Below, piece by piece: positions 1,491-63,344 of a stretch of DNA of 64,000 bases. Source of the stretch: Malacoraja senta (taxonomy: Eukaryota). Within the stretch, counting starts at the first letter, position 1. Every line of letters begins with the position of its first letter. The notes under the pieces are model-generated. The model was not told where the DNA came from, searched no databases, and worked only from the letters and a program-made list of their open reading frames with translations. The stretch is taken from positions 22,260,001 to 22,324,000 of the forward strand of contig CM075988.1 in NCBI GenBank assembly GCA_038087875.1. Reading direction: 5' to 3'. The position numbers and the translations under genes are program-made.

Positions 1491-1524
1491 AAAACGGTGG
1501 CCATGAAGTCTTCAATATCAATCG
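1491..1524 (+). CDS. dzip3: Exon 1 ([11 protein letters not shown]); possible start ATG at 1503
   Basis: ctacttgcag acceptor, G|gtaagt donor, phase 1 end fits exon 2; gtggccATG context. Confidence 0.6.
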
Positions 1525-4500
1525 GTAAGTGTTATTTTACTTTCAGAGATCTCTTTCAAACATCAGATATTGGACAGTTTTGATGTTGGCCATCATTAGC
1601 TGCTTTTCCTATCATTTGCCATTCCTTGCTATTGAGGGAGTGCAGGGTAGGTTTACAAGGTTAATTCCGGGATGGCGGGAGTGTCCTATGCTGAGAGAAT
1701 GGAGCAGCTGGGCTTGTGCACTCTGGAGTTTAGAAGGATGAGAGGGAATCTCATTGAAACATATAAGATTGTTAAGGACATGGGCACGCTAGAGGCAGGA
1801 AACATGTTCCCGATGTTGGGGGAGTCCAGAACCAGGGGCCACAGTTTAAGAATAAGGAGTAAGCCATTTAGAACGGAGACGAGAAAACACTTTTTCTCAC
1901 AGAGAGTGGTGAGTGTGTGGAATTCCCTGCCTTAGCGGGCGGTGGAGGGAGGTTCTCTGGATGCTTTCAAGAGAGAGCTAGATAGGGCTCTTAAAAATAG
2001 CGGAGTCGGGGGATATGGGGAGAAGGCAGGGACGGGGTACTGATTGGGGATGATCAGCCATGATCACATTGAAGGTCAAATGGCCTACTCCTGCACCTAT
2101 TGTGTATTGTCTATTGTCTATATCAGATATTGTACAGTTTTGATGTTGGCCATCATTAGCTGCTTTTCCTATCATTTGCCATTCCTTGGCCAGGCCCAGA
2201 GTGGCTCATTAAATGCGGTTAAATTGCAAAGTATATGCTCCTATAAATGCCTTTTAGACGTTATAATTGTATTGGCCTCTTCCACCTCTTCTTGTAGCTC
2301 ATTCTACACACTCTTCACCCACTGTGTGAGAAACCTGGGTACATCGGAGCAATCCCTGTTCCAGGCGTACACTGGCCCTATCCCTGAAGTCTATCTCCGC
2401 TACATTGATGACTGCATCGGGGCTATCTCCTGCATCCATGCAGAACTCACGGACTTCATTAACTTCACTACTAATTTCCATCCTGTACCCAAATTCAAAT
2501 TCAAATTCAAATTCACATCTCGACCCGCAATGTCACCCATTCCTTCTCTCCAGAGATGCTGCCTGTCCCGCTGAGTTACACCAGCATTTGGTGTCCATCT
2601 TCGATGTAAACCGGCATCTGCAGTTCCTTCCTACACAACATGCCGGTGAATCTCTTCTGCATTCTTTCTAATCTCACCACATCCTTCCCATTGTGTGGTG
2701 ACGGGGACTGCACACAGTACTCCAAGAGTGGCCTGACCAATGTGTTGTTCAGCTGAAACATGACCTCCCAACTCCTATACTCAATGCCTTGGGCTATTAA
2801 GGCAAACATGCAGAATGCCCTGTATACTATCCTATTTCCAGGGTATCGGGTATCACTATACATAAGCTCTTGGATAAACATCCCAGATACAGTACAAGTG
2901 TACAGCAGTAGTACACTTAGACAGATTTGGTGCCAATTTCAACCCAGTTTGTTATAGAATTGAAGAGTCATACAGTGTGGAAACAGGCCCTTCGGCCCAA
3001 CTTGCCCACACCGACCTACATGTCCCATCTACACTAGTCCTACCTGCCTGCATTTGGCCCATATCCCTCTGAACCTGTCCTTGTATCTGTCTAAACCTAT
3101 CCATGAACCTGTCTGAGATAGTGCCTGCCTCAACTACCTCCTCTGCAGCTCGTTCCATACACCCACCGCCCTCTGTGGTTCCTATTAAATCTTTCCTCCC
3201 TCACCTTAAACCTATGTCCTCGGGTTCATGATTCCCCGACTCTGGGCAAGACACCCTGTGCTTTTACATAATCAATTCCTCTCATGATTTTGTTATTAAT
3301 TGCTCCACCGCTTGGTGGAGTTACAGGCCGCACCCGTCCCATGCGCTCGGCCTTTTCGATCGGGGCCCGATCCAACTATGACTCTGGTGATGAAGATTGA
3401 AGCTGTTGTACTTTGCATCCTGTTAGTGTTTGACGCCTTCCCTTCGCTTTCCCAACCCTTGCAGGCGAGATGGCTTTCGACTGGTGCAAGATGGCCCCCG
3501 AGTGTTATCTGCAACACTGCCACCTCGCCTTTGTCAACGTGTTTGATGAGCTCCTCTTCAGCCAGCAGCACGAGCCGACCAGATACCTCAAGTGGGCCCA
3601 GGATGGGTTGCTGCTCAGTAAGAAAGTGTAAGTTTCTTTAAAAAAAATCGATGACTCTTGGATAGGAAAGGTTCAAGAGTCACGAGTGTTTTATTGCCAT
3701 ATGTCCCAGATAGAACAATGGAATTCTTACTTGCAGCAGCACAACAGAATACGGTGAAGGTTTCGAGGGGTATTGGCCAAATGAGGACAAATAGGACTAG
3801 TGTACTTTGGGCATCTTGGTTGGCATGGACAAGTTGGACTGAAAGTCCTGTTTCCAAGCTCCAAGACCCTTTCATTCGCCCTAGGGCCCCATCGCCGACC
3901 CTGGGGCCCAATCCATGACTAATTTAGAAGGATGAGAGGGGATCTCATTGAAACATATAAGATTGTTAAGGGCTTGGACGTGCTCGAGGCAGGAAACATG
4001 TTCCCGATGTTGGGGGAGTCCAGAACCAGGGGCCACAGTTTAAGAATAAGGAGTAAGCCATTTAGAACGGAGACGAGGAAACACTTTTTCTCACAGAGAG
4101 TGGTGAGTCTGTGGAATTCTCTGCCTCACAGGGCGGTGGAGGCAGTTTCTCTGGATGCTTTCAAGAGAGAGCTAGATAGGGCTCTTAAAAATAGCGGGAT
4201 ATGGGGAGAAGGCAGGAACAGGGTACTGATTGTGGATGATCAGCCATGATCACATTGAATGGTGGTGCTGGCTCGAAGGGCCAAATAGCCTACTCCTGCA
4301 CCTATTGTCTATTGTCTAATTCAACAGACATTACATCAATGAGAACAGCCTGTCCCAGTTAGCTACGTGTGGGTAAAAGGAGATGGAGTCACACCCTGTT
4401 CTCGGTCATTTTGCGCTTGAAGGCACTGGGCCTGTACTCGCTGGTGTTTAGAAGGATGAGGGGGGACCTCTTTGAGACTTGCCGAATAGTGAAAGGTCTG

Positions 4501-10500: not shown

Positions 10501-13500
10501 TTGGATTGAGCTTGTTTGCTTCTTCTTGGTCCGGCAGGAATTGCAAAGACGCAGCGGTGGATTTGACTGTGATCCAGACGATGGAAATCTTCTGGACGAT
10601 TTATGGTGAGATGAAGAAGAAATGTGTAAGTTGCAACTCCCTGTCTTTGGTCACGTGGAGGGGTGGGGGAGGGGGTGGAATCGCATTAGTGATTAGTACG
10701 GGTGTCGTGGGTTATGGGGAGAAGCCAGGAGAATGGGGTTGAGAGGGGGAGATAGATCAGCCATGATTGAATGGTGGCGTAGACTTGATGTGGCGAATGG
10801 CCTAATTCTGCTCCTAGAACTTAACGTATGTGTGTTGGACTAAGTGTTGTAGGGGATAGAGAAATGTCAATGGTTCAGGTCAAGAACCTGCGTCAGGACA
10901 GAGAGAAGATGGTCAACTATACAAAGGGGAAAGAGAGGGGTGAGGGACGAGGTCTTCAGCCCAACTTGCCCACACTGGCTAACATGCTCCATCTACACCA
11001 GTCCCACCTGCCTGCATTTAGCCCATATCCCTCTAATCCTATCCGATCCATGTAGCTGTTCAAATGTCTCTTCAATGTTGTGATAGTACTTGCCTCAACT
11101 ACCTCCTCCGACAGCTCATTCCATCTACCCACCACCCTTTTGTGCAAGATAAGAGTTGCCCTACTTAGGAGTTGCCATATAGGTTCCTATTAAATCTTTC
11201 CCCCCTCACCTTAAATCTATGTCCCCTGGTTCTGGATTCCCCCACCCTGGGAATCTATTCCTGTCGTGATTTTATACATCTCTATGAGATCACCTTTCAT
11301 CCTCCTGCACTCCAAAAAATAAAGTCCTAAGATGAGAGATGGAAGGCAGGTGAAACCAGATGGGGCAGGGGAACAAACATGGGTAATGGGGAGGGATGTG
11401 GTAAAGGGGACATTTAATGTTCATACTATTGGATTGTAGCCCACCCAGGCAGTGATGATAGCCCCTTCAAAGGAATGTTTGTGTTGGGTGGGGTAGTTAA
11501 ATGGGCTTTGGGCCGAGCGGACATTAACCTGTTCAAAGCCGTGGTGTTTAGCAGTTGAATCCTTGCTCATCTTCGATCCTCATTCTCTTCCCTTCCAATG
11601 TAAAGCACTTTGGTCAATGAGAGTTGTTTTTTAAATATGCTATAGAAATAAAAGTGAATTGACTTGACGACTTCCCTGGTTCTATTTCAGAATCATAACA
11701 GGTTTGTTGCTGCCCTTCTGAAGACCTTCGAACGAACCCAGGTGAGAGACGGAGGTGAATGAGACCCGTCCTGTCAGCGGCGTTTAGCATGTACCTGTCT
11801 GGATGTGTGTTAAACTGGAGGTGGAGAAACTAGTCACGGGTGGCGCAGCGGTAGAGTTGCTGCCTTACAGCGAATGCAGCGCCGGGGACCCGGGTTCGAT
11901 CCCAACTAGGGTGCTGTTCTGCCCGTGACCTGCGTGGGTTTTCTCTGAGATCTTCGGTTTCCTCCCACACTCCAGACGTACAGGTTTGTAGGTTAATTGG
12001 CTTGGTAAATGTAAAAATTGTCCCTAGAGGGTGTAGGATGGTGTTAATGTGCGGGGATCGCTGGTCATGTTCTTTAGCAAATCTTTCATTCATTTGTTCT
12101 ATATCTCTCTACATCACCGTCTATATCCTTTCCCCTGACTCACCTATTCCCTCTCTCCAGAGATGCTGTCTGACCCGCTGAGTTACTCCAGCTTTTTGTG
12201 TCTATCTTCTGTACTGTTCTATATTCTTTGCTGTAACTTTCCAAAGTTCCTGAGGCAAGTGACATGCAGTAGCTTTCCTTTAGTAAACTTTCCGTTGCCC
12301 CGAATGCGATTGTCTGCTGTTAATTATGTCGTATAGTGTAGCAATACATTAATTGTGCAAACATCGCTTGTCATCATCTAATTATTCTATTAATCACGCT
12401 GATTTAAATCTATATTGTTGTCTTTAACAGATGACAAAACCCTGTTTCCATCTCAACGAAGATTTCAGCTGGTTGGCAATGGGAGAGTTTTGCCAGCGTT
12501 GCCATGGTGATCTGTTTGCAGTGGTACTTTCTCCCCCCTACATTGCCATAGTGCCACAGCGTATCATCCATTTAATGTCAAACTGTATTAGGTATTTGGT
12601 GAAACAAGGAACAGCAGATGCTGGCTTACAATGAAGGACACAAAGTGCTGGAGTAACTCAGTGGGTCGGGCAGCATCTGTGGAGAACATGGAGAGGTGAC
12701 GTTTCAGGGCCAGACTCTCGGCCTGGACTTTGAAGATGAGTCCCGACCCGAATCGTCACTTATCCAGAGATGTGTAAGAAGGAACTGCAGAAGCTGGTTT
12801 CATCCGAAGAAAGACACCAAAAGCTGGAGTAAGTCAACGGGACAGGCAGCATCTCTCGAGAGAAGGAATGGGTGGCGTTTCGAGTTGAGACCCTTCTTCA
12901 GACTGGTTAGGGATAAGGGAAATGAGAGATATAGATGGTGATCTGGATAGATAAAGAACAATGAATGAAAGATATGCAGAAAAAGTATCTCAGGATATCC
13001 AGATATGCTGCCTGACCCGCTGAGTTACTCCAGCACTTGTTGTCTCTGTTTGTGTTAGCTATTAAGAAACCTTAATAGCCCTGTCCCACGGTACGAGTTC
13101 ATTCCAAGAACTCTCCCGAGTTAAAAAAAAATCAAATTCGTGGTAAGCACGGAGAATGAACGTAGCGGTACGTCGGAGCTCGGGGACGTCTCTTAGCGCT
13201 AACGGCAGGTACTCGGGAAGACTCGCTAACGGCAGGTAAGCACGGGAAGACTGGTGAAGATTTTTCAACATGTTGAAAAATGTCCACGAGAGCCCCGAGT
13301 ACCGACGAGTGGCCATTACCGTAAATCTCCGAGTTCGAATCGGGGCAAACTCGGGAGAGCTCTTGGAATGAACTCGTACCATGGGACAGGGCTTTAACCC
13401 TTTTTCTTTCTCCGCAGGTGCTTTGTGGCCAGCTCAGTATTTCCAGCGAGCAGTGTTTGTGTAAACATTGACAGTTTCTTTCTGCCGTCCCACTAGGATG

Positions 13501-32902: not shown

Positions 32903-32989
<87 letters not shown>

Positions 32990-38615: not shown

Positions 38616-38649
<34 letters not shown>

Positions 38650-50600: not shown

Positions 50601-51360
50601 ATCGATGTAAGTTTCAATGAGGCCCCCCCCTCCACCATTTAAACTTGGCCTCCACAGCCGCCTGTGGCAATGAGTTCCACGGTTGGTTGGCGTAATGATC
50701 CCGGTGTTTGGGTGACGGAGCTCGGCGGGGGGGGGGGGGGGGGGCCGGGCCGGGTAGAGTTGGACAGACTGTAACTGCGATCACTCTGTGCAGGTCGGAG
50801 AAGCAGATCAAGGCTCAAGTGCAAGAACTGGAGGAGCTGAAGAGTCGCACTCAGCAGGACCAGTGAGTAGCAGATGCAAGGTGGCCTCAATGTAACATAG
50901 AGTCACCTAGCCTGGTAACGGGCCCTTCAGCCCAACTTGCCCACACCGACCAACATGCCCCATCTGCACCAGTCCCACCTACCTGCGTTTGGCCCATATC
51001 CCTCTAAACCTGTCCTATCCATGTACCTGTTTAAACGTTGTGATAGTCCCTGCCTCAACTACCTCCTCTGGCAGCTCGTTCCACACACCCACCCACCGCC
51101 CTCTGTGTGAGGGTGTGGACATGCAGCGTTACAAAGTGGGGATCCTTCTTATGACTGACTGGAGCCGTTTGCTCCCCTGTTTCACAGGGAACAGTGGGCG
51201 CAGGAGAAGACCCGGCTGGAGCGGCAGTCGGCAAAGAGCAAGGACGAGTTCATCGAGGCCATGCGGCGGGCCATGTCCGCAGAGGTACCGCGCTAATTCA
51301 GCCACCGCGGGCACCGCACGGCTCGCAGTGTATATTAAACACACACACACACACACACAG

Positions 51361-51391
<31 letters not shown>

Positions 51392-51392
51392 G

Positions 51393-51476
<84 letters not shown>

Positions 51477-51503
51477 ACACACACACACACACAGACACAC
51501 ACA

Positions 51504-51550
<47 letters not shown>

Positions 51551-51605
51551 AGACACACACAGACACACACAGACACACACAGACACACACACACACACAC
51601 AGACA

Positions 51606-51652
<47 letters not shown>

Positions 51653-52417
51653 ACAGACACACACACAGACACAGAGCTGGAGACCCTCCATGGGTCAGGC
51701 AACAGCGGAAGGGAGGGGGGGGGAAAGAGTGAGGGAGAGAGAGTGGGGGAGAGGGGAGGGGAGGGAGAAAGGGAGGGGGGAGAGAGTGGGAAGGAGAGTG
51801 AGGTAGAGAGTGGGATGGGAAGAGGGGAGGGAGTGATCGGGAGGGAGGGAGAGAGGGGGGAGATCAACCTCAGCCTTAAAAATACCCATTGACCCAACTA
51901 TAAATATGTGGATTTCAAATATGTTTGAAACATTACACCTTGAAGAGATAAGACTCCTCCTAGCAGGTAAACCAGATCACTTCCACCTGACGTGGTCTGC
52001 ATTTATAGAATTATTACAAACATAGGGTGCAAAAGTACTTTAAAAAAAAATAAAAAAATTGAGGTCGTGTAAGGGGGATGATAGTTGAAGAGTTGGTATG
52101 TCCTATTTACGTGATGCTCAAAAAAAAAACATTTGTTTCTCTTTTTTTCTCTTTCTCTTTTCTTTTCTTAGGGCCTATTTCTTAACTCTCTTTCTTTTTG
52201 TTTTTAATTTCGCTCTCATAGGGTCCTCGTCCTTTTTTGTTGTTACATTTTCTACACTTTTCTACACTTGCACTTTATCCTTCACTTTCTTCCCTCTTTC
52301 AATCTTTTCTTTCTCTAGTGTAAAAAAATAAATAAAGGGAGTACATTAATTGTAAGAAGATATAAATGACGAGTATTAATGTATGTGGTTGTAATGTAAT
52401 GTACTTCTAATAAATAA

Positions 52418-52449
<32 letters not shown>

Positions 52450-55400
52450 TACCCATTGACATTTGTCCTCCACAGCCGTCTGTGGCAATGAATTCCACCG
52501 CTTCACTCCAGTTTGTGCTCACAGGTGCAGGTGCTGGAATGCAGGCGGGACAAAGGCACGGCGTTCCTGGAGCAGGCGGCCAAGGAGGGGGAGGTCAAGG
52601 TGTCTGGACTGAGGCAGAGCCTAGTGAGGTGAGCAGGGCAGGCAGGCGCTGCTCCAGCCTGAGATAATGGATGGGATTTATACAGCGCCTTTCTAATACT
52701 CAAGGCGCTTTACATCGCATTATTCATTCACTCCTCAGTCACACTCGGTGGTGGTGAGCTACTTCTGTAGCCACAGCTGCCCTGGGGCAGACTGACGGAA
52801 GCGTGGCTGCTAATCTGCGCCTACAGCCCCTCCGACCACCACCAATCACTCACACACATTCACACACATTCACACGCAGGCAAAGGTGGGTGAAGTGTCT
52901 TGCCCAAGGACACAACGACAGTATGCACTCCAAGCGGGATTCGAACCGGCTACCTTCCGGTTGCCAGCCCAACACTTAGCCCATTGCGCCATCTGTCGTC
53001 CTGGGCTTCCTGGGAGATGACACCTTGGGCTTTATACATATGCAGCGCAGGATCCTTGTGCGAAAACCTTTGCCGATCCCTTTCATGAGACCCATTTTAA
53101 TCTATCCAAGAGCAAAAGATACCGTTTATTGAAGTCTTTGAATTTAGACTTTTAGAGATACGTAGCAGAAACCGACCCTTCAGCCCACCGAGTCCGCGCC
53201 GACCAGCGATCCCCACACACTAGCACTATCCCACAACACACCAGGGACCATTTACAATTTTTACTGAAGCCAATTAACCTACAAACCTGTACGTCCTTGG
53301 AGTGTGGGAGAAAACCGGAGCAATCGGAGAAATCCCACGTGGTCACGGGGAGAACGTACAAACTCCGTACGTGTAGTCAGGATCAAACCCGGGTCTCTGG
53401 CGCTGTGACAGCATCTGCCTTAAATGTGTGTTTTTGTGTGTCTGTGTCCGTGTATATGTGCGTGTGTGTACAGTATGTGTGTGAGCGTGTATGTGTGTGT
53501 GCATGTGCAAGTTTGTGGTGTGTGTGTGCACGTGCGTGTCTGTGCATATGCTGGTTTGTGGTGTGTGTGCGCGTGTCTGTGTCCGTGTATGTGTGTGTGT
53601 GTATAGTGTGTGTGCGCGTGTATATGTGTGTGCTTGTGTCCGTGTGTGTGTGAGCGTGTATGTGTGTGTACATATGCTGGTTTCTGGTGTGTGTGCGTGT
53701 GTCTGTGTACTTGTATATGTGCGTGTGTGTACAGTGTGTGTGCGCGTGTATATGTGTGCGTGTGCGTGTTCTTTAGTACGGGCCCCACTGTGGTGAAGGT
53801 GAGGGAGTGAGTTACCACAGACCAGTGTGTTTGCCTTTCCCACAGCGGGCCTGCGCCACAGATAGATGTGAAAGCTGCCGTGCTGGCGTATGAAATGGTG
53901 ATCGCCGACATCCGCTCAAAAATACACCAAACTGTGGTGAGCGTTTCACTAACATTGCTTCACTTCTTAAATCATTGCCTTTTGTAGCTGTCTCCTTCCA
54001 AATACTTGCTTGATTTCTGTTTAATTCTTCTGGTTCTATCAGCTTGGGGAAATGGAATTAAATTCTTATTTGAAATAATGCGTATTTTCGCTGCTCAATG
54101 GACATCAAAGATCCTATAGCGGAGCAAGATAGACCACCCCTGCTAAATGCAATGGGCTGACGTGTAGTACGCAACGGAACGGAACGTGGGCCCTTTTTTC
54201 ATCCATTTCCGTAACCGGACCTGACCCGCAGTGTAATCAACGTTGCGGGGGAACAGTTTGTGTGAATAAATTATAATTCTGAAAATGAGGAGAAGATTTT
54301 TACCAAATAACTTTTATTTTTACGAGGATGTTTCCGTAACCGGCTTCCGTCTCCGCACTAGTTATCTTTGCTCCGCTGTGGTGGGATCTTTGGTGCGGAG
54401 ACGGAAGCCGGTTACGGAAATGGGGCTGAAAATGACCCATGAATCTGCCCATGACCGTACTACGTCTTTTTTGTCGAGTGGACCATCTTGCTCGCTATAG
54501 GATCTTTGATGGACATCGCGTCAAGCGCAGAATTTGTGGGCTTTATGGTTTAGGGTTTATTATTGTCACGTGTACCAAAGTAATTAACTTTATTGTCACG
54601 TGTACCGAGGTACAGTGAAAAGCTTTGGTTTACTTTCAAATCAAATCAGGTAATACTCTCCATTAATACAGTCAAGTCAAGCACCGGTACAAAGGGTAGA
54701 GTGAAGGGAAAGATATCACAGTGAAGGTTATAGTATCTCAGCCTGGTAATATTTTCTCAGCTAGAAATAACGATTTAATCGATAATGTTTCATTATTAGT
54801 AAGTAAGTAAGTAAATTTTATTTATATAGCACGTTTAAATCAACTCGCGTTGAAAATAAAGTGCTTTACATAAAAGAAATAATTAAGTTTCCGCACACCC
54901 ATAGAAAAATTTATAAAAATTAAAATGACACAAAACATTATAGAATTCAACATGAACGTCCCCCCACAACAGAATCAACATTTTCCACGGTGGGGAAAGG
55001 CAACAAAAAGTCAAGTCCTTGTCCTCTGTGATCACCCGAGATCGGGGCCTATTTGAGGCCTCCGCAGCCAGTCCGATGTTTTCAGGCCTTCTTGCCGGGA
55101 AGATGGAACTCCGGCGTCGGGCGAACACTCCATTAATGTTTAATGTTTTATGAGTCATTCCTAACTGTCACTGTATGTCATGTTGTCATTTGTGGGCGGA
55201 GCACCAAGGCAAATTCCTTGTATGTGAATATACTTGGCCAATAAACTTATTAATTAATTCACTCCAAAAAAAAAGATGCAAAGTGCTGGAGTAACTCAGC
55301 GGGTCAGGCAGCATCTCTGGAGAACATGGATAGATGGTGTTTCGGGTCAAGACACTCCTTCAGTCATTTCAGAAGTTATAGGAGCAGAATTAGACCTTTG

Positions 55401-58400
55401 ATATTCTGACTTTTCCTAATCTTTTGTCAATTAAACTCTCATTCCAAACTTCTCCCATTCTGTCAATCCAGAATCCAGCATCTGACACGTAATCTAATCC
55501 TTTATATTTTTAGGCAGAGATCTGTAAAGATCGCCTGCCAACTAAAGTCTTTAAGCTAGCAATCATTTGTGTCGGGCAGCATCTCTGGAGGAAAGGAATA
55601 GCTGATGTTTCCTGTCGAGACCCTTCTTCAGACTGAGTTACTCCAGCATTTTGTGTCTACCTTTGGTGTAAACCAGCATCTGCAGTTCCTTCTTACACAT
55701 CATTCTTGCCAACTCTGTGTCTGCAAGGATCATGTCGCCCCAGTGCTGGGACCTCATGGTTCTTGAAACTTAGCGATTTCCTGAGTGGAGCTCAAAGTGC
55801 TGGAGTAACTCAGCGGGACAGGTAGCATCCGTGGAGGCAACGGCCGGGCAATGTTTCAGATCTGGACCCTTCTTCACACTGACCACCGGTTTCTTTCCTG
55901 CTCTCTGTTTTAAAGAGTGCCTTCAATGAACAGATGGACCTGATACGGAACGGAGCAAAGCTGAGTAACATGCCGCAGGTTCCTGTCCTGCTTCCACCTT
56001 CCCAGTCAGACTTCATGGTAAGGCAGCCAGCACCAAACCTGGATGCACTTCTGTAAACGCTAAACATGCTAAATGTGTCTTCACAAGCGAGGAAACGGAT
56101 GTTTGAAATGCTAATGCTGTTTGTATTTACACACTCACACACACACGCGCAGACACACACACGCAGACACACACACGCAGACACACACACGCAGACACAC
56201 ACACGCAGACACACACACGCAGACACACACACGCAGACACACACACGCAGACACACACACGCAGACACACACACGCAGACACACACACGCAGACACACAC
56301 ACGCAGACACACACAAACAGACACACACACGCAGTCACACATACACACGCAGTCACACATACACACGCAGACACACATACACACGCAGACACACACATAC
56401 AGACACACACACGCAGACACACACACGCAGACACACATGCACACGCAGACACGCACACGCAGACACACACACACGCAGACACACACACACGCAGACACAC
56501 ACACACGCAGACACACACACACGCAGACACACACGCACACACGCACACACACGCAGACACACACGCACACACACACACACACACACAGGCACATGCACGC
56601 ACACACACACAAACACACGTGTGCGCGCGTAGGCACACACACATACATTATTATATTACCACATATATTAGACATACTATAATAAACTAAACTAAATATT
56701 GTGTGTAGTGTGTGTATATATACATATATAATATCTGTATATTATATTTACTAGACATATAAACATAATAAACTAAATTAAATATTGTTTACTGTGTATA
56801 TACATATAATATACAATATATATAATTATTGCTTATACTAGATGTACAATTGTAAACTAAATATTGTGTATAATGCGTGTGTGCTAACATTGTTTATTTG
56901 AAGTGTGTAGTTCACACAATATGTAGTTTGGTTTATGCAGCAGGCAGTGAAGAAAGCCAATGGTATGTTAGCATTCATAGCAAAAGGATTTGAGTATAAG
57001 AGCAGGGAGGTTCTACTGCAGTTGTACAGGGCCTTGGTGAGACCACACCTGGAGTATTGCGTACAGTTTTGGTCTCCAAATCTGAGGAAAGACATTCTTG
57101 CCATAGAGGGAGTACAGAGAAGGTTCACCAGACTGATTCCTGGGATGGCAGGACTTTCATATGAAGAAAGACTGGATAGACTTGGCTTGTATTCGCTAGA
57201 ATTTAGAAGATTGAGGGGGGATCTTATAGAAACTTACAAAATTACAGGCTAGATGCAGGAAGATTATTCCCGATGTTGGGGAAGTCCAGAACAAGGAGTC
57301 ACAGTTTAAGGATAAGGGAGAAATCTTTCTGGACCGAGATGAGAAAAACATTTTTCACACAGAGAGTGATGAATATGTGGAATTCTCTGCCACAGAAGGT
57401 AGTTGAGGCCAGTTCATTGGCTATATTTAAGAGGGAGTTAGATGTGGCCCTTGTGGCTAAAGGGATCAAGGGGTATGGAGAGAAGGCAGGTACAGGATAC
57501 TGAGTTGGATGATCAGCCATGAACATATTGAATGGCGGTGCAGGCTCAAAGGGCCGAATGGCCTACTCCTGCTCCTATTTTGTATGTTTCTATGTTTCTA
57601 TTGTCACGTGTACCGAGAACAGTGAAAAGCTTTTGTCGTGAGCTATCCAGTCAGCAGAGAGACAATACATGATTACAATCAAACACTCCACAGTGTACAG
57701 TTACAGGATAAAGGGAATAACATTTAGTGCAAGGTAAAGTCTGATTAAAGATAGTCCAAGGGTCTCCAATGAGGTAGATGGGAGGTCAGGACCGCTCTCT
57801 AGTTGGTGGTAGGATGGTTCAGTTGCCTGATAACAGCTGGGAAGAAACTGTCCCTGAATCTGGAGGTGTGCGTTTTCACACTTCTGTACCTCTTGCCTGA
57901 TGGGAGAGGGAAGAAGAGGGAGTGACTGGGGTGAGACTGGTCCTTGACTATGCTGCTGGCCTTGCCGAGGCAGCGTGAAGTGTAGATGGAGTCGATGGAA
58001 GGGAGGTTGGTTTGCGTGACGGTCTGGGCTGCGTCCACAACTCTCTGCAATTTCTTGTAGTCTTGGACGGAGTTGATCCCAAACCGTGCCGTGATGCTTA
58101 TCGCTAAAATGCTTTCTGCGGCGCATCTGTAGAAGTTGGTGAGAGTTGTTGGGGGACAAGCTGGACTTCCTAAGTGCCAGGTGCATTGTACCTTTGCCAG
58201 ATGAATGAGGTTTTTTTTTCTCAGGAACATCGTTAACAGCTTATTTCTTCTCCAGCTTATTTACATGTCAAAACAAAAGGAGCTTCTGGCATCCAATGGA
58301 TTCCCAGCGAATAACAACAGCCAGGGAACATCATCCGCTGTGCCGACCTTTACCCTGGGAATGGTTCCATTGAACAATCAAATTGGAATCACACAGGTAG

Positions 58401-61400
58401 GCTACGCCATGGATCGAAGCATCTTGATCTTTTATAGACAGTAGACAATAGGTGCAGGAGTAGGCCCTTGGAGCCAGCACCGCCATTCAATGTGATCATG
58501 GCTGATCATTTAAGGCAGAGATAGACAGATTCTTGATCAGTGCGGGTGTCGGGTTAAGGGAAGAAGGCAGGAGAATGGGGTTAGGAGGGAGAGATAGATC
58601 AGCCACGATTGAATGGCAGAGTAGACTTGATGGGCCGAATGACCTAATTCTGATCCTATGACTAATGAAAGGGTGTTGGCACCCTCCTGCCACAGGCTTG
58701 ACTGGGACATGTTGGAGGGTCAGTAACATGGGGTGTGCGCTTCAATTCCGCAACTGTTTACCATATATATTATTGATTTGGAAGAGGGAATTAGGAGCAA
58801 CACTACCAAGTTTGCAGATGACACAAAGCTGGGTGGCAGTGTGAACTGTGAAGAGGATGTTAGGAGGTTGCAGGGTGACCTGGACAGGTTGAGTGAGTGG
58901 GCAGATGCGTGGCAGATGCAGTATAATATAGATAAATGTGAGGTTATCCACTTTGGCGGCAAAAACAAGGGGGCAGATTATTATCTCAATGGGGTTAGGT
59001 TAGGTAAGGGGGAGGTGCAGCGAGACCTGGGCGTCCTTGTACACCGGTCACTGAAAGTTGGCGTGCAGGTACAGCAGGCAGTGAAGAAAGCTAATGGAAT
59101 GTTGGCCTTCATAACAAGAGGATTTCAGTATAGGAGTAAAGAGGTTCTTCTGCAGTTGTATAGGGCTCTGGTAAGACCACATCTGGAGTATTGTGTACAG
59201 TTTTGGTCTCCTAATTTGAGGAAGGACATCCTTGTGATTGAGGCAGTGCAGCGTAGGTTCACGAGATTGATCCCTGGGATGGCGGGACTGTCATATGAGG
59301 AAAGATTGAAAAGACTAGGCTTGTATTCACTGGAGTTTAGAAGGATGAGGGGGATCTTATAGAAACATATAAAATTATAAAAGGACTGGACAAGCTCGAT
59401 GCAGGAAAAATGTTCCCAATGTTGGGCGAGTCCAGAACCAGGGGCCACAGTCTTAGAATAAAGGGGAGGTCATTTAAGACTGAGGTGAGAAAAAACTATT
59501 TCACCCAGAGAGTTGTGAATTTATGGAATTCCCTGCCACAGAGGGCAGTGGAGGCCAAATCACTGGATGGATTTAAGAGAGAGTTAGATAGAGCTCTAGG
59601 GGCTAGTGGAGTCGAGGGATATGGGGAGAAGGCAGGCACGGGTTATTGATTGGGGACGATCAGCCATGATCACAATGAATGGCGGTGCTGGCTCGAAGGG
59701 CCGAATGGCCTCCTCCTGCACCTATTTTCTATGTTTCTAATTCCATTGCCCAGACCTGCCTCTCCATTCACCACTGCTCTATGTGAACTGTTGCAGAGGT
59801 CGATGTCGCCTGGGTTGTCCCCACAGCCGTCGTCACTCGGTCCGGTAAACCCCGGTCCTGGAGGGGCCGCCAATCAAAACCACCTCGAACGCCTTCTGGA
59901 GAAACTGACTGAGTTGTTCCCACAGCACAACAGGTAACGGCCAGGAGGTCACAAGCACGCTCTTGTCACCAGGGTCACCATCACACTCTTAATAAATGAT
60001 GAAGAAGCCCGATTGTGAGAATCCGTAATCTTGAAATGACAGATTCATCTTTGTAAAACTCCGGGTTAGTTGAGGGAGGGCCAGTTCCTGCGCTGCACCC
60101 GATGTGAGACAATTCTGTGGGCCTCACATTGGCCCGGCGGTAGAGTTGCTGCCTTACAGCGAATGCAGCGCCGGAGACCCGGGTTCGATCCCGACAACGA
60201 GTGCTGTCTGTACGGAGTTTGTACGTTCTCCCCGTGACCTGCGTTGGCTTTTCTCCGAGATCTTCCGTTTCCTCCCACCCTCCAAAGACGTGCAGGTTTG
60301 TAGATTAATTGGCTTGGTGTAATTGCAAATTGTCCCTCGTGTGTGTGCGGAGGAGAGTGTGCGGAGATCGCTGGTCGGCACGGACCCGGTGGGCCGAAGG
60401 GCCTGTTTCCGTGTTGTATCTCTAAACTAAACTAAACTATGGGTGCAGAGGCCATTTGGCATTTATAATATTCAATCGGGTTTCCTCTCGACCCCCGACT
60501 CTCCAGGATGGGGAGGCCATTTAAGACTGAGGTGAGAACAAACTTTTTCACCCAGAGAGTTGTGAATTTGTGGAATTCCCTGCCACAGAGGGCAGTGGAG
60601 GCCAAGTCACTGGATGGATTTAAGAGAGAGTTGGATAGAGCTCTAGGGGCTAGTGGAATCAAGGGATATGGGGAGAAGGCAGGCACGGGTTATTGATTGG
60701 GGACGATCAGCCATGATCGCAATGAATGGCGGTGCTGGCTCGAAGGGCCAAATGGCCTCCTCCTGCATCTATTTTCTATGTTTCTATGATATAAATCCGA
60801 GTTTGTCCAACCTATCATATAGCTAATCCCCTCTAATCCAGTTAGCCTTCTGGCAAACTTCGTCTGCAATCACCAGAGCCTCCACATCCTTCCTGTGGTC
60901 TGATTAAAGTCCTATATAGCTGCAACATGCCTGCAGTTGACTTTATTTACTAGTTTAATTTAAAGATACAGTGCGGAAACAGGCCCTTCGGCCCATCAAG
61001 TCCGTGCCAACCAGCTATCCCCGCACACGACACACACTGGGGACAATTTACAATTTTACCAAGCCAATTAACCTACAAACCCGTACGTCTTTGGAGTGTG
61101 GGGGGAAGCTGAAGATCTCGGATAAAACCCACGCAGGTCACGTGGAGAACGTACAAACTCTGTACAGAGAGCACCCGTAGTCAGGAAATCGAACCCGGGT
61201 CTCTGGCGCTGTGAGGCAGCAACTCTAACGCTGTGCCACCCTAACATTTGTCCTGACTGCCTGACATTTATACTCAGTACCCTGACCTGTGAAGGCAGGC
61301 GTGTACTGTGTGCTTCAATGGCCGTTCTACCGGCTGGTGTTGCTTCTGTTGGTGTTGGAGTTTGCTGGGTTGAACACACACACACGAGTTGTCAGACTGC

Positions 61401-63344
61401 GTTGTCTAACCTCCCGCGCTGCCCCTGCAGGGATATGATGATCGTCTTTCTCCGGCATGTCCGTATGATGAACAACAACTCGCTGTCGGGACTGTCCTTT
61501 GAACAAATCATCAGTCAGGTCTCAGTCCTTATCAAGACCCAACAGCCGCACCTTGTGGTAAGTGTAAGGTCAATATCATTATCAATCAATATCAGTTCTA
61601 TTCGTCACTTGCACATAAAGTGCACGTGAAATGAATTTGCCAGCAGCGGTACAATGAGAAAAGAACACCCAAAAACACAATGAACATTTGACACAAAGAA
61701 CATTCATTACTGTGGCGGAAGGCACAACATTTGGCCAGTCCTCCTCATTCGTCCCGCTCCTCCTCCATGGTCCCTCTCCCTTTCTCAGTCTTGTGACTGG
61801 AGAGAATTAAGTGGGAGGTTGACCAAGTTATTTTAAATTTGTTTTAGTTTTTAGAGATACAGCGCGGAAACAGGCCCTTCAGCCCACCGAGTCCGCGCCG
61901 ACCAGCGATCCCCGCACACTAACACCATCCGACACACACTAGGGACAATTTAAATATTGTTACCAAGCCAATTAACAGCTGTCTATAAATCACTTGTAGA
62001 ATCTGTACTCACCTTTAACATCACAGCCTGGTTCACCCTCACCTCTGTCAAAGACAAATCAAAGCTTTCCCGGATCATCAATCAAGCAAGCAAAATAACT
62101 GGCAAAACTCAAAATCAATTATCAGTACTCCACACCCAGGCAGTTAAAAGGAAAGCCAACCTCATTACACAGGATCCCACCCACCCCCCCCACCCACCCC
62201 CTGCACAAGTCCTTCCAACTTCTGCCATCAGGCCGCTGATATAAAGTCCCCCTATCTAAGAAAAACATCCACAAAAACTCATTCATACCCATTGCCATAA
62301 ACAGCTTAAATAAAAAATGAAGAATGGACAAATTAACCCTGACGCATTGTCACTTTACACGTATCCACAACTTTCATCTTGTCTATTTTTTTACAGTTTT
62401 TAATCCTTATACTTGCTTTTAAGATCTATACACACGGTGTGTGCTCGCAGAAATCTGTGTTGTATGACTGCTTATCAGTACATTGTCCTGTTTGTATTTT
62501 GAGCCACGCCAAAGAAGATTTTCTGTTACGCCAGACAATAAAGTTTTCTGAATCTGAATCTGAATTAACTTACAAGCCTGTACGTCTTTGGGGCGTGGGA
62601 GGAAACCGGAGATCCCAGAGAAAACCCACACGGTCCCATGGAGAACATACAAACCCCATGCCTGACACATCTCCTTTATACGTTCCCCCTCTCACCTTAA
62701 GTTTCTGCTCGCTGGTCTTTAACATTTCCACGCCGGCCGCTCTATCTCAATCCTCCCCAATAACTTCCCCGATACTGATGTCAGGGCTCACTGGCCTATA
62801 ATTTCCTGGATAATCTTTATTTCCCTTCATCAAAGGAACAACATTGGCTACTCCCCAGTCCTCCAGGATCTTGCCTGTCTAGAGAGGAAACAAAGAGAGC
62901 CACGGTCGTGCAGCGGTAGAGTTGCTGCCTTACAGCGCCAGAGACCCGGGTTGGATCCTGACTGAGGGTGCTGTCTGTACGGAGTTTGTAGGTTTTCCCC
63001 GTGACCTGCGTTGGTTTTTCTCCGGGAGCTCCTGTTTCGTCCCACACTCCAAAGACGTACAGGTTTACAGCACCCGTAGCCGGGATCAAACCTGTGCCTT
63101 CGGCGCTGCGAGTCAGCAGCCCTGCCCCTGCGCCACCGGGTTTTGACGCAGAGTTTTGATTCTCAAAATTCCTCCCTCTCGCCCTGACGATGCTCCACCC
63201 TCTGCCGTTCCTCCACGTCCCGCACAGTTAAACGTTGTGTGTTTCTTGTTTTGCCCACAGAATGTAAATCTGGACTTTGCCAACCTGCCAACCAACCCAG
63301 CCACATCGATGGGCACCTGGAGGTCCATCCCACGAGATCCCCAC
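1491..63344 (+). CDS. dzip3: Multi-exon DZIP3/TTC3-family E3 ubiquitin ligase gene (29 exons visible; 3' RING exon and possibly 5' exons outside the window; exon(s) probably lost in the gap)
   Basis: Chain of AG/GT(GC)-bounded exons with matching phases. HEPN exon ([12 protein letters not shown]...WGLLYPP...[10 protein letters not shown]...[26 protein letters not shown]) and C-terminal exons ([65 protein letters not shown]) match recalled DZIP3; N-terminal and TPR exons match recalled TTC3. Confidence 0.8.
1629..2121 (+). mobile_element. 5'-truncated CR1 LINE (young family) flanked by 67-bp direct repeats
   Basis: RT C-terminus ([15 protein letters not shown]...FFSQRVV..WNSLP) and (ctattgt)n tail. 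Confidence 0.9.
2345..2490 (+). mobile_element. Penelope-like element RT fragment
   Basis: [26 protein letters not shown]...[10 protein letters not shown] (YIDD motif). Confidence 0.8.
3465..3627 (+). CDS. dzip3: Exon 2 ([35 protein letters not shown]...[12 protein letters not shown])
   Basis: cccttgcag acceptor, GT|gtaagt donor, phases 1/2; resembles TTC3 N-terminal WC...NIFWPLLF segment. Confidence 0.75.
3922..5985 (+). mobile_element. Cluster of CR1 LINE 3' fragments (about 3922-4318, 4420-4835, 4990-5985)
   Basis: [27 protein letters not shown] motifs, frameshifted, with CR1 3' tails. Confidence 0.9.
6453..6897 (-). mobile_element. CR1 3' fragment with fold-back inversion
   Basis: Antisense CR1 3' end; arms 6743-6815 and 6825-6897 are inverted copies. 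Confidence 0.85.
7078..7105 (+). ncRNA. Minimal hammerhead ribozyme motif in Penelope-derived repeat (one of many copies)
   Basis: CTGAAGA-A-GGGTtccgACCC-GAAA-C-GTC: CUGANGA box, stem II, GAAA box, GUC site. Confidence 0.6.
8321..8606 (+). mobile_element. tRNA-derived V-SINE (HE1-like); representative of about 20 copies (e.g. 9125-9385 -, 14720-15000 -, 27269-27570 +, 34520-34798 +, 36607-36913 +, 39821-40144 +, 49730-50038 -, 60132-60440 +, 60955-61240 -)
   Basis: A box tggcgcag..gtag, B box ggttcgatcc, V domain ggagtttgtacgttctcccc...cccacactccaaagac, tail gggccgaagggcctgtttcc...ctaaa. Confidence 0.85.
10538..10625 (+). CDS. dzip3: Exon 3 ([29 protein letters not shown])
   Basis: Pyrimidine tract plus cag acceptor, gtaagt donor, phases 2/0. 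Confidence 0.75.
11691..11741 (+). CDS. dzip3: Exon 4 ([17 protein letters not shown])
   Basis: tctatttcag acceptor, CAG|gtgaga donor, phases 0/0. Confidence 0.7.
13076..13394. mobile_element. PIF/Harbinger-like MITE
   Basis: Long TIRs agccctgtccca(c/t)ggtacgagttcattccaaga; TAA on both flanks. Confidence 0.8.
13497..13626 (+). CDS. dzip3: Exon 5 ([43 protein letters not shown])
   Basis: cccactag acceptor, gtaagt donor, phases 0/1. Confidence 0.8.
13872..14082. repeat. Penelope-derived palindromic repeat (representative; also about 7778-7963, 24883-25095 and many others)
   Basis: Inverted arms atagacacaaaatgctggagtaactc...ctggagagaagga / tccttctctccagag...gagttactccagcattttgtgtcta. Confidence 0.7.
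15848..15930 (+). CDS. dzip3: Exon 6 ([28 protein letters not shown])
   Basis: tttcctctgtttag acceptor (alternative in-frame acceptor gives start 15854), gtaagt donor, phases 1/0. Confidence 0.8.
16158..16510 (-). mobile_element. CR1 3' fragment
   Basis: Near-identical to other young CR1 copies. Confidence 0.9.
16848..17365 (-). mobile_element. L2 LINE 3' fragment
   Basis: [30 protein letters not shown]...[14 protein letters not shown]...FKSRLKTHL; tail aataaaagcgacttgacttga. Confidence 0.85.
18102..18573 (-). mobile_element. CR1 3' fragment nested in another CR1 tail
   Basis: ORF 18186-18578; the host tail (atcagccatgat..cacattgaatggcgg) is split around it. Confidence 0.85.
19214..19529. 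mobile_element. PIF/Harbinger-like MITE, same family as 13076-13394
   Basis: Same internal sequence and TIRs, TWA flanks; 36 nt upstream of exon 7. Confidence 0.75.
19566..19660 (+). CDS. dzip3: Exon 7, TPR1 ([32 protein letters not shown])
   Basis: TPR consensus G..F..A...Y.KA; tag/aag NAGNAG acceptor; AG|gtacct donor; phases 0/2. Confidence 0.85.
20618..20680 (+). CDS. dzip3: Exon 8, TPR2 ([21 protein letters not shown])
   Basis: TPR pattern P....Y..RA.CY; strong splice sites; phases 2/2. Confidence 0.9.
21962..22768 (+). mobile_element. CR1 RT fragment
   Basis: [33 protein letters not shown]. Confidence 0.9.
23373..23427 (+). CDS. dzip3: Exon 9, TPR2/3 ([18 protein letters not shown])
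   Basis: A..D..RA..L.P...K TPR pattern; phases 2/0. Confidence 0.9.
24701..24860 (+). CDS. dzip3: Exon 10, TPR3 plus capping helix ([29 protein letters not shown]...IQEEMKKK)
   Basis: ctctctccag acceptor, G|gtaatt donor, phases 0/1; similar to TTC3 GHYRYCDAL..G. Confidence 0.9.
25245..25836 (+). mobile_element. CR1 3' fragment
   Basis: ORF 25235-25744. Confidence 0.9.
26723..26749. mobile_element. 27-bp TIR remnant with 8-bp TSD (probable DNA transposon excision footprint)
   Basis: gaagaaac-CAAAGATCCTGTAGCGGAGGATCTTTG-gaagaaac. Confidence 0.8.
26873..26909 (+). CDS. dzip3: Exon 11 ([13 protein letters not shown]), GC donor
   Basis: ttattacag acceptor; CAG|gcaagt donor; supplies the phase 1 to 2 change needed between exons 10 and 12. 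Confidence 0.65.
28070..29640. mobile_element. CR1 fragments (28070-28480 -, 29120-29640 +) and a V-SINE flanking exon 12
   Basis: RT C-terminal peptides in the ORF track. Confidence 0.8.
28522..28642 (+). CDS. dzip3: Exon 12, acidic linker ([40 protein letters not shown])
   Basis: cgcag acceptor, CAG|gtaggc donor, phases 2/0. Confidence 0.75.
30204..30258 (+). CDS. dzip3: Exon 13 ([18 protein letters not shown])
   Basis: tctttttttgcag acceptor, gtgagt donor, phases 0/1. Confidence 0.75.
30688..32148 (+). mobile_element. 5'-truncated L1-clade LINE with poly(A) and 13-bp TSD
   Basis: ORF2 C-terminus [13 protein letters not shown]....H....C zinc knuckle; TSD agaatactttcta at 30675-30687 and 32149-32161. 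Confidence 0.9.
32661..32734 (+). CDS. dzip3: Exon 14 ([25 protein letters not shown])
   Basis: tttgttccag acceptor, gtaaac donor, phases 1/0. Confidence 0.7.
33261..33661 (+). mobile_element. Non-autonomous Helitron-like element
   Basis: TC(TA)n 5' end; 3' hairpin cagaccc-aac-gggtctg (33633-33649) followed by CTAG|T. Confidence 0.6.
34888..34919 (+). CDS. dzip3: Exon 15 ([11 protein letters not shown])
   Basis: T-rich tag acceptor, gtaagt donor, phases 0/2. Confidence 0.7.
35080..36014 (-). mobile_element. Antisense L1 3' end with a sense L1 3' end nested inside
   Basis: TSD cttcatgccaa at 35069-35079 and 36015-36025; inner insert 35326-35767 with A-rich tail. Confidence 0.75.
36057..36112 (+). 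CDS. dzip3: Exon 16 ([18 protein letters not shown])
   Basis: cactaac branch point, cttcag acceptor, G|gtaagt donor, phases 2/1. Confidence 0.75.
38300..39362. repeat. (TG)n-containing minisatellite, unit tgtgtctctgtgcctgtatccctgtgc plus variable TG
   Basis: Directly visible tandem array. Confidence 0.95.
39423..39734 (+). CDS. dzip3: Exon 17, first CARD-like helical domain
   Basis: 312-nt phase 1-1 exon: ...[67 protein letters not shown]... Confidence 0.9.
40278..40510 (+). mobile_element. tRNA-derived SINE with CORE-like body and L2-type tail (second copy 52665-53001, - strand)
   Basis: tggcgcaatgg / ggttcgaatcc boxes; gtgtccttgggcaagacactt; gtaaagcactttgg..(att)n. Confidence 0.7.
40836..40985 (-). 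pseudogene. EFCAB5-like coding fragment, antisense in intron 17
   Basis: [49 protein letters not shown] resembles recalled EFCAB5 FDPINYLGEYLIRNNP...VTEDLKIY.....NR; no GT donor; cut by a MITE. Confidence 0.5.
40987..41381. mobile_element. PIF/Harbinger-like MITE (second family)
   Basis: Long TIRs agcccctgtcccacttaggagacctaaacagcaacctct; TAA TSD at 40984-40986 and 41382-41384. Confidence 0.85.
42300..42700 (-). mobile_element. Penelope-like element 3' end (GIY-YIG C-terminus plus terminal repeat)
   Basis: Minus strand reads [22 protein letters not shown]; adjoining hammerhead-type motif. Confidence 0.7.
42756..43061 (+). CDS. dzip3: Exon 18, second CARD-like helical domain
   Basis: 306-nt phase 1-1 exon: ...[64 protein letters not shown]... 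Confidence 0.9.
44095..44530 (-). mobile_element. CR1 3' fragment
   Basis: ORF 44317-44529. Confidence 0.85.
45556..46195 (-). mobile_element. L1 3' fragment
   Basis: Poly(T) start; related to 35080-36014; ORF2 C-terminus on the minus strand. Confidence 0.75.
46253..46942 (+). CDS. dzip3: Exon 19, DZIP3-type HEPN domain (two compensating 1-nt frameshifts in this assembly)
   Basis: Homologous reading runs in the frame of ORF 46210 to LIILEG, in the frame of ORF 46394 from TRMAQKVF to DIWHKA, then back ([18 protein letters not shown]); phases 1/1. Confidence 0.9.
47052..47633 (+). mobile_element. CR1 3' fragment
   Basis: ORF 47055-47549. Confidence 0.9.
48227..48426. other. Assembly gap (200 N)
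   Basis: Run of N. Confidence 1.
49545..49684 (+). CDS. dzip3: Exon 20, coiled coil ([47 protein letters not shown])
   Basis: cccttctgcag acceptor, gtgagc donor, phases 0/2. Confidence 0.85.
50794..50862 (+). CDS. dzip3: Exon 21, coiled coil ([23 protein letters not shown])
   Basis: tgtgcag acceptor, gtgagt donor, phases 2/2. Confidence 0.85.
51188..51284 (+). CDS. dzip3: Exon 22 ([32 protein letters not shown])
   Basis: Phases 2/0; matches DZIP3 QWEMEK...RALTAE. Confidence 0.9.
51339..51675. repeat. (CA)n compound microsatellite; similar degenerate arrays at 53425-53770 and 56128-56645
   Basis: Directly visible. Confidence 0.95.
51894..52444 (+). mobile_element. L1 3' end, same family as 30688-32148
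   Basis: Near-identical 3' region, long poly(A), TSD aaaatacccattgac. Confidence 0.9.
52525..52628 (+). CDS. dzip3: Exon 23 ([35 protein letters not shown])
   Basis: Phases 0/2; matches DZIP3 VYFLQCRRDFGLLHLEQ. Confidence 0.9.
53846..53936 (+). CDS. dzip3: Exon 24 ([30 protein letters not shown])
   Basis: Phases 2/0; matches DZIP3 LKAAVDSWNAIVADVRNKI. Confidence 0.9.
54106..54508. mobile_element. MITE with CAAAG...CTTTG termini and 8-bp TSD (P-element- or hAT-like)
   Basis: TIR caaagatcctatagc(g)gagcaagat; TSD atggacat at 54098-54105 and 54509-54516. Confidence 0.85.
55916..56017 (+). CDS. dzip3: Exon 25 ([34 protein letters not shown])
   Basis: Phases 0/0; matches DZIP3 YNEQINKVKQGFALSTLP. 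Confidence 0.9.
56935..57600 (+). mobile_element. CR1 3' fragment
   Basis: ORFs 56935-57252 and 57273-57503. Confidence 0.9.
57601..58200 (-). mobile_element. Rex1/Babar LINE 3' fragment (others near 18640-18870, 23950-24230, 34210-34500, 44915-45350, 61980-62560)
   Basis: [16 protein letters not shown]...[10 protein letters not shown]...LPSGKRYRS...[17 protein letters not shown]. Confidence 0.8.
58256..58396 (+). CDS. dzip3: Exon 26, low-complexity linker ([17 protein letters not shown]...IGITQ)
   Basis: tttcttctccag acceptor, CAG|gtaggc donor, phases 0/0. Confidence 0.75.
58745..59740 (+). mobile_element. CR1 RT and 3' fragment (a further 3' end at 60510-60790)
   Basis: ORF 58733-59362 with FADDTK. 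Confidence 0.9.
59797..59933 (+). CDS. dzip3: Exon 27 ([11 protein letters not shown]...[19 protein letters not shown])
   Basis: Phases 0/2; matches DZIP3 NWERITDRLKTAFPQQTR. Confidence 0.9.
61431..61557 (+). CDS. dzip3: Exon 28 ([42 protein letters not shown])
   Basis: Phases 2/0; matches DZIP3/TTC3 FL.....GKSLS.L.FDEIV. Confidence 0.9.
63261..63344 (+). CDS. dzip3: Exon 29, pre-RING linker ([28 protein letters not shown])
   Basis: ttgcccacag acceptor, gtgagt donor, phases 0/0; W-R motif precedes the RING in this family. Confidence 0.75.

Follow-up and report, generated by a model that had tools for sequence, protein, structure and literature searches.

Our analysis revealed that the 64,000-nucleotide stretch of Malacoraja senta DNA studied here (the window) very probably carries a separate, intact paralogue of the TTC3/DZIP3/RNF214 family. 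The locus is a real gene, reasonably likely to be functional, for a RING-H2 E3 ligase, its activity being predicted, of approximately 1465 residues. The domain order is an N-domain, TPR, two CARD-like domains, HEPN, a coiled coil (PF24525), the helical PF24905 domain and RING-H2. The sequences suggest that this paralogue arose before the chimaera/shark split, and it was observed here only in cartilaginous fishes. As a whole, we favor, with some confidence, the explanation that it is a cartilaginous-fish paralogue from the DZIP3 side of the family with the history of domain gain and loss proposed below.

Gene structure

With orthologue proteins as guides, 29 coding exons of a plus-strand gene were mapped between an acceptor at 1491, followed by an ATG at 1503, and a donor after 63344. 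They are bounded by AG acceptors and GT donors, with the single exception of a GC donor after 26909. Exon 1 (1491..1524) encodes residues 1-7, and its acceptor implies a non-coding exon upstream, the location of which was not found. The TTC3-type N-terminal domain is encoded by exons 2 (3465..3627, residues 8-61), 3 (10538..10625, residues 62-91), 4 (11691..11741, residues 92-108), 5 (13497..13626, residues 109-151) and 6 (15848..15930, residues 152-179), and the TPR block by exons 7 (19566..19660, residues 180-210), 8 (20618..20680, residues 211-231), 9 (23373..23427, residues 232-250) and 10 (24701..24860, residues 251-303). A linker follows, acidic and serine-rich in exon 11 (26873..26909), downstream of which lies the GC-AG intron (26909-28522). 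It continues through exons 12 (28522..28642), 13 (30204..30258), 14 (32661..32734), 15 (34888..34919) and 16 (36057..36112), and occupies the place of the second TPR block and PF19179 of TTC3. CARD-like domain 1 (exon 17, 39423..39734), CARD domain 2 (exon 18, 42756..43061) and a DZIP3-type HEPN without the catalytic histidine (exon 19, 46253..46942) are each encoded by one phase 1-1 exon, the pattern expected of shuffled modules. The coiled coil is encoded by exons 20 (49545..49684, PF24525 region), 21 (50794..50862), 22 (51188..51284), 23 (52525..52628) and 24 (53846..53936), and the PF24525 region ends in exon 25 (55916..56017). Exon 26 (58256..58396) encodes a linker, exon 27 (59797..59933) a linker and the start of PF24905, and exon 28 (61431..61557) the PF24905 helical domain (41.4 bits). 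Exon 29 (63261..63344) is the final exon inside the window; the RING is absent from the window, its exon(s) lying beyond 64000. The reading frame continues past the 63344 donor at 63345-63410, where it resembles an extension in the Pristis model P0003, which suggests an alternative donor used by other species.

When spliced, exons 1-18 gave 634 codons with zero stops (606/634 identity to orthologue P0001) and exons 20-29 gave 364 codons, likewise with zero stops (345/360), and the gene was approximately 95% identical to skate RefSeq models labelled “TTC3-like” or “DZIP3-like”. The phase-consistent exon chain claimed in the preliminary description was thus confirmed for these two parts; it did not hold between 46942 (phase 1 out) and 49545 (phase 0 in), where a 200-N assembly gap lies (48227..48426), nor in the HEPN exon, which carries two indels. 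The exon(s) for approximately 182 residues, comprising a linker, the lysine-rich stretch and the start of the coiled coil, are missing at the gap: residues 865-1046 of P0001 map onto it, and tblastn, run against all six frames, found no match for them in the window (best E 0.075).

The indels of exon 19 are a plus-strand G run with one base more than in all orthologues (46383..46387), causing a +1 frameshift, and an A run with one base fewer than in the orthologues (46777..46778), which supplies the compensating -1. Read in its entry frame, the exon is open, but its middle 131 codons are garbled; identity to P0001 there was 29/107 in the entry frame and 121/131 in the shifted frame. Because the shifted 131 codons keep this identity, both indels are probably assembly errors. 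The two one-base indels and the missing exon(s) could also be read as signs that the copy in the window has recently become a pseudogene or that its HEPN is translated out of frame. We regard this as extremely unlikely, since both indels sit in homopolymer runs and cancel each other, the shifted part of the HEPN is still 92% identical to its relatives, neither frame nor splice sites are disturbed in the remaining 28 exons, the missing part coincides with the N gap, and the gene models of relatives are intact.

The full protein of 1455-1464 residues, from TPR to RING, was found on each of six Logan contigs (4.7-5.1 kb) of close relatives. Because the gene spans more than 62 kb, we infer that these contigs are spliced transcripts; therefore, the TPR part and the HEPN/RING part belong to one gene. 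The preliminary description was correct in joining TTC3-type N-terminal and TPR exons, two CARD-like domains, a DZIP3-type HEPN and a RING in a single gene. The RING that it expected was found in 14/14 orthologues, though not within the window itself.

Apart from its one 200-N gap, the window is repeat-rich vertebrate DNA, without any Rfam match. LINE-type reverse-transcriptase ORF fragments (for example, 4972-5891, 58727-59646 and, on the minus strand, 16857-17510), which we take from their translations to be CR1/L2, make up approximately 60% of it together with short dispersed repeats. Long TG/CA-rich tandem arrays occur at 38302-39409, directly upstream of the CARD1 exon, at 51339-51863 and at 56057-56680. 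The stretch 30001-36000 is AT-richer and mostly non-repetitive intronic DNA, with a GC content of 0.36-0.43 against approximately 0.48 elsewhere. Residues 63-89 of P0003 (Pristis isoform X2) are an insert that matches the dispersed repeat of the window many times, and it probably reflects either exonisation of a repeat or an error of the gene model.

Orthologues and paralogues

A query with the middle of the HEPN exon yielded 14 full-length orthologues of 1150-1513 residues, with 60-92% identity over the HEPN. They form 14 clusters, from skates to chimaera; the 13 with source names are all from cartilaginous fishes, and their automatic names are “TTC3-like” or “DZIP3-like”. No bony-vertebrate orthologue appeared in a word-based search or in an unfiltered phmmer search of 1.84 billion representatives. 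Because the first search was word-based and the second collapses sequences at 50% identity, this absence is good, not final, evidence of loss. In phmmer with P0010, the next match after its own cluster was skate DZIP3, with 29% identity and PF19179; the same search recovered another paralogue, from sharks and rays (P0019, P0027).

Besides the window gene, cartilaginous fishes possess separate TTC3, RNF214 and DZIP3 genes and a fifth paralogue, a tally pooled over cartilaginous fishes, with no single species seen to hold all five. No lamprey or hagfish member was identified among the sequences recovered. The fifth paralogue (P0019, P0027, P0182 and P0183, from Hemitrygon and Carcharodon) has the CARD pair, a HEPN without the histidine, the lysine-rich stretch, the coiled coil and the RING, and neither TPR nor PF19179; it lies on a different chromosome and is automatically named “DZIP3-like”.

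The window clade was on the RNF214 chromosome in 4/4 species (Heptranchias, Heterodontus, Pristis and Mustelus), and on a chromosome different from that of TTC3 in 4/4, of DZIP3 in 2/2 and of the fifth paralogue in 2/2 species; chromosome sharing was judged by equal sizes of sequence records, not by gene order, and Pristiophorus had no size. It is in these terms that a possible 2R-ohnologue relation to DZIP3 was assessed. RefSeq accession spacing (29, 214 and 179 apart) did not indicate adjacency to RNF214.

Assignment of the window gene as the shark RNF214 orthologue was dropped, since separate shark RNF214 proteins exist. It was also rejected as a DZIP3 orthologue: it belongs to a clade of its own (100/100), DZIP3 exists in skates as another gene on a different chromosome, and PF19179 occurs in 0/14 orthologues, with no remnant in the six frames of the window. 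Because skates possess that separate gene, the architecture described here is not the standard one of non-mammalian DZIP3. Orthology to TTC3 was likewise rejected, as shark TTC3 joins bony-vertebrate TTC3 at 100/100 to the exclusion of the window gene, and the second TPR block, PF19179 and the winged helix PF24812 were each found in 0/14 orthologues.

Domain architecture across the family

We derived one set of profiles from 18 TTC3 proteins and another from the 14 window-clade orthologues, and surveyed 456 fetched proteins. TTC3 has the order N-domain, first TPR block, second TPR block, PF19179, two CARD-like domains, winged helix, coiled coil and RING; as the preliminary description had stated for mammals, it lacks the HEPN (0/114). 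TTC3 profiles matched the window clade in the N-domain (9/14) and the first TPR block (13/14), the misses including N-truncated models, which supports the TTC3-type assignment of the N-terminal and TPR exons. The N-termini of DZIP3 match the second TPR block of TTC3 (5/5), whereas the window gene matches the N-domain and first block. Skate DZIP3 has the second TPR block, PF19179, both CARDs and the HEPN. The second block, PF19179 and the winged helix, each absent from the whole window clade, left no remnant in the introns of the window (best E 0.64). RNF214 has no TPR, CARD, HEPN or other N-terminal domain (0/117).

The 28 invertebrate-type homologues, of which four are named (amphioxus, scallop, sponge and sea cucumber), share TPR, PF19179 and the winged helix but carry no CARD and no HEPN. 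The spacing from PF19179 to the winged helix is 117-263 residues in 25/26 invertebrate-type proteins measured, the other being a fragment with 25, compared with 323-338 in 9/9 TTC3. The first TPR block and the HEPN occur together only in the window clade (26 proteins among the 456). None of the 456 combines HEPN with the winged helix, or the first TPR block with both PF19179 and HEPN.

Pfam analysis of the protein detected PF18738, PF24525, PF24905 and RING-H2, and TPR below the cut-off; in P0001, PF24525 scored 88.3 bits and PF24905 54.6 bits. The C-terminal exons, described as DZIP3-type in the preliminary description, proved to be common to TTC3, DZIP3 and RNF214. The C3H2C3 pattern of RING-H2 is complete in 14/14 orthologues. 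The HEPN of the window scored 63 bits against PF18738 (cut-off 27). In its R-x4-6-H motif, the arginine is present and the histidine is missing in 14/14 orthologues; the histidine was found in 0/9 vertebrate-clade HEPNs versus 29/30 other HEPN hits. Passages of PMC3710099 and PMC9646362 treat R-x4-6-H as the RNase site of the HEPN family. The window-clade HEPN is, as predicted from this motif, a non-cutting pseudo-nuclease. The lysine-rich stretch after the HEPN is present in 14/14 orthologues and also in DZIP3.

The CARD pair

CARD2 is clearly a CARD fold in its structural model (pLDDT 89.8), although it had no Pfam hit. Its best VIA-align match reached Z 12.0 with an rmsd of 2.5 over 86 residues, and the first 33 of the 50 matches listed were CARDs, ranked above death and effector domains; Foldseek gave TM values up to 0.75 (best E 0.029). 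CARD1 is likely to be a CARD fold as well. It scored 22.9 bits with Pfam CARD, just below the 23.9 cut-off, which its homologue in TTC3 exceeds (28.3 and 27.2 bits); coelacanth and bilby TTC3 are above it. The CARD1 model has six helices and a pLDDT of 59.7. The structures most similar to it are CARDs, though with no more than Z 5.2, the first ten listed all being CARDs or CARD-derived. With Foldseek by itself, neither domain had a match at E<=0.001. The ESM Atlas returned CARD clusters for residues 430-635 and TTC3 clusters for the whole protein, all hits being below 0.9 and leads only.

The CARDs are the slowest-changing modules after or beside the RING: chimaera and skate are 79% and 70% identical in the two CARDs, compared with 63% in TPR, 60% in HEPN and 56% in the coiled coil. 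TTC3-built profiles matched both CARDs in 14/14 window-clade orthologues; conversely, the window-clade CARD1 profile matched 112/114 TTC3 proteins and the CARD2 profile 13/114. In all 114 listed TTC3 (P0017, P0333-P0446), PF19179 is separated from the winged helix by two CARD-like domains, of which Pfam flags the first alone, and only in some species. Skate DZIP3 (P0164, P0165) has the pair, whereas mammalian DZIP3 (P0050, P0025, P0031) does not (0/3). The tenrec and opossum DZIP3 models also lack a HEPN hit and are possibly isoforms. These sequence comparisons suggest that the CARD pair is a little-noticed general feature of jawed-vertebrate TTC3-family ligases and that it was lost from mammalian DZIP3.

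Phylogeny

A first tree of 57 rows, for which the careful search was incomplete, left the five clades unresolved. In a C-terminal tree of 342 columns and 32 chosen rows, from which the HEPN was excluded, each of the five vertebrate clades received 100/99-100, and the HEPN-bearing genes (window gene, DZIP3 and fifth paralogue) grouped together at 89/93. AU tests on these columns rejected none of three alternatives (p=0.163, 0.086 and 0.388), the first of which joins TTC3 and DZIP3. In a concatenated tree of 801 columns and 31 rows, with the long-branched P0092 left out, TTC3 branched first, followed by RNF214, the window clade, and then DZIP3 with the fifth paralogue (81/88, 82/67 and 85/76, un-starred deep branches of moderate support). 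On the concatenated columns, the AU test rejected a basal window clade (p=0.0105) and a TTC3+DZIP3 clade (p=0.0146), and rejected neither window+TTC3 (p=0.070) nor window+RNF214 (p=0.259). The vertebrate-clade HEPNs formed one clade against 30 other HEPNs (98/95, with a bootstrap not fully settled). These alignments make a DZIP3-side origin of the window gene probable.

The preliminary description had proposed that the window gene retains the ancestral architecture from before the duplication, of which TTC3 and DZIP3 later lost complementary parts. The joining of first-block TPRs and HEPN only in the window clade, the moderate support for invertebrate monophyly and the deep nodes, and the survival of TTC3+DZIP3 in the C-terminal-only test are consistent with it. 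The basal placement that it calls for was rejected, however; the window clade has neither the winged helix nor the PF19179 common to TTC3, DZIP3 and invertebrate homologues, the invertebrate-type proteins have no CARD pair (0/28) or HEPN, and HEPN and winged helix were never joined among the proteins fetched. We therefore consider this proposal very unlikely. From the trees and architectures, the window gene appears to be derived and DZIP3-side. Reciprocal trimming would still apply, not between TTC3 and DZIP3, but between the window gene and DZIP3, with losses predating the shark/bony-fish split.

Discussion

Our results suggest the following history. The invertebrate-type gene would have had the N-domain, TPRs, PF19179, winged helix, coiled coil and RING, and two CARD exons may have been inserted after PF19179 in the vertebrate stem. 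One duplicate would then have gained the HEPN exon and lost the nuclease histidine and the winged helix. Among its descendants, DZIP3 would have kept the second TPR block and PF19179 and lost the first TPR block, the window gene would have kept the N-domain and first block and lost PF19179, and the shorter shark paralogue would be the third. RNF214 may also belong to the DZIP3 side, as another member that was cut short. The complementary losses of the window gene and DZIP3 would have preceded the separation of sharks and bony fishes.

The shared chromosome could instead point to a true mosaic, in which a TTC3-type 5' end (N-domain and TPR) was joined on the RNF214 chromosome to a DZIP3-type CARD-CARD-HEPN-RING part, RNF214 being the 3' remainder of the TTC3-type copy. 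The lack of all N-terminal domains in RNF214 (0/117), its chromosome common to both genes in 4/4 species, and a poorly conserved linker in place of the second TPR block and PF19179 fit this reading. In contrast, the concatenated tree places RNF214 on the DZIP3 side and not with TTC3 (81/88), the accession spacing shows no adjacency, and a simple internal deletion gives the same architecture. We find the mosaic rather improbable and prefer the DZIP3-side history with internal loss.

With regard to function, we lean slightly towards an RNA- or ribosome-tethered, non-nuclease E3 scaffold. The pseudo-HEPN and lysine-rich stretch would bind RNA or a ribonucleoprotein without cutting it, the TPRs would engage chaperones or substrates, the CARD pair together with the coiled coil would govern self-association and oligomer state, and the RING would recruit an E2 and ubiquitylate proteins of the bound ribonucleoprotein. 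DZIP3 reportedly binds RNA through its lysine-rich stretch, and the CARD in cIAP1 controls oligomer state. The RNA-binding HEPN module of the preliminary description is present as a DZIP3-type HEPN; its nuclease motif is lost, and its RNA binding is argued by analogy with DZIP3. DZIP3 is described as an RNA-binding RING ligase in part of PMC4645096, and TTC3 as associating with 40S subunits and initiation factors in part of PMC10041068.

A different function, which we judge unlikely, is that of an innate-immune RNA sensor, in which the pseudo-HEPN binds foreign RNA, the CARD pair nucleates filaments in the manner of RIG-I/MDA5, and the RING provides ubiquitin in cis. The tandem CARD fold is compatible with this, as are the fusions of DZIP3-type HEPNs to CARD, NACHT, TPR and RING in animals (PMC3710099, entries in Table 1) and the expansion of these HEPNs in oysters as candidate immune effectors (PMC9646362, in part). 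However, the gene is single-copy in the hit lists, the nuclease motif is lost, the CARDs seem too slow-changing for an arms-race receptor, the RIG-I/MDA5 CARDs rank 17-36 and not first among the structural matches of CARD2, and the same CARD pair occurs in TTC3, which has translation-control roles. Slow evolution, single copy and the CARD pair common to TTC3 lead us to favor a housekeeping partner over an immune sensor. It is similarly doubtful that the tandem CARD functions as a death-fold platform for signalling, which early vertebrates would have acquired a single time and which the TTC3 of all jawed vertebrates, the human chromosome-21 ligase among them, would have retained, so that the cartilaginous-fish paralogue, by coupling the CARD in cis to the RNA-binding pseudo-HEPN and RING, would be a helicase-free, self-ubiquitylating RNA-to-CARD relay lost by bony vertebrates.

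This study also provides insights into the family and its annotation. The family history is corrected to five TTC3-family genes in cartilaginous fishes, as against three found in bony vertebrates, and the mis-named models conceal a distinct orthology group. Already known are the gene itself, modelled in RefSeq under misleading names, and each domain pairing with the DZIP3-type HEPN, listed in 2013; TPR, RING and CARD appear among the fusions listed for this HEPN family in sections of PMC3710099 and PMC9646362. One possible, low-confidence CARD in human TTC3 is flagged in part of a 2016 preprint (10.1101/087908). The literature searched held no description of the window orthology group, the five-gene shark family or a family-wide tandem CARD; subscription journals and bioRxiv supplements lay outside its scope, and Supplementary Table 1 of 10.1101/087908 may bear on the TTC3 CARD. 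Passages of 10.1101/2025.07.21.665930 and PMC13717357 contained nothing on the window gene.

Comparison with known systems

The closest relatives are RefSeq cartilaginous-fish models (XP_032905449.1 of Amblyraja radiata, XP_055516587.1 of Leucoraja erinacea and XP_067827061.1 of Heptranchias perlo). They are orthologues with the same domain order, the skates being approximately 95% identical, but their automatic names are inconsistent among species and their precomputed Pfam lists have no CARD.

The tandem CARDs of RIG-I/MDA5 share the CARD fold with CARD2 (Z 8.9-10.0) as well as the tandem arrangement, and cIAP1 (Z 9.2) is a CARD beside a RING ligase. Identity is only 9-20%, the window gene has neither helicase nor BIR, and likeness of fold shows no function. 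Invertebrate DZIP3-type HEPN effectors, in which PF18738 is combined with NACHT and death folds, belong to the same HEPN family; they keep R-x4-6-H (29/30), whereas the window gene does not.

RNF214 has PF24525, PF24905 and RING in common with the window gene and shares its chromosome in 4/4 species, and a sister relation was not rejected. It differs in having no TPR, CARD or HEPN (117/117), and is a separate gene in sharks. TTC3 shares the N-domain, first TPR block, CARD pair, PF24525, PF24905 and RING-H2, and differs by its second TPR block, PF19179 and winged helix PF24812 and by the absence of HEPN (0/114); shark TTC3 is a separate gene on another chromosome. For TTC3, a ligase investigated in neurons and in ribosome quality control, the CARD pair offers a structural hypothesis that can be tested directly. 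DZIP3/hRUL138, like the window gene, has a PF18738 HEPN without the histidine, the lysine-rich stretch, PF24525, PF24905 and RING-H2, and skate DZIP3 also has the CARD pair. Unlike the window gene, DZIP3 has PF19179 and the second TPR block and has neither the N-domain nor the first TPR block; the two are 29% identical and lie on different chromosomes.
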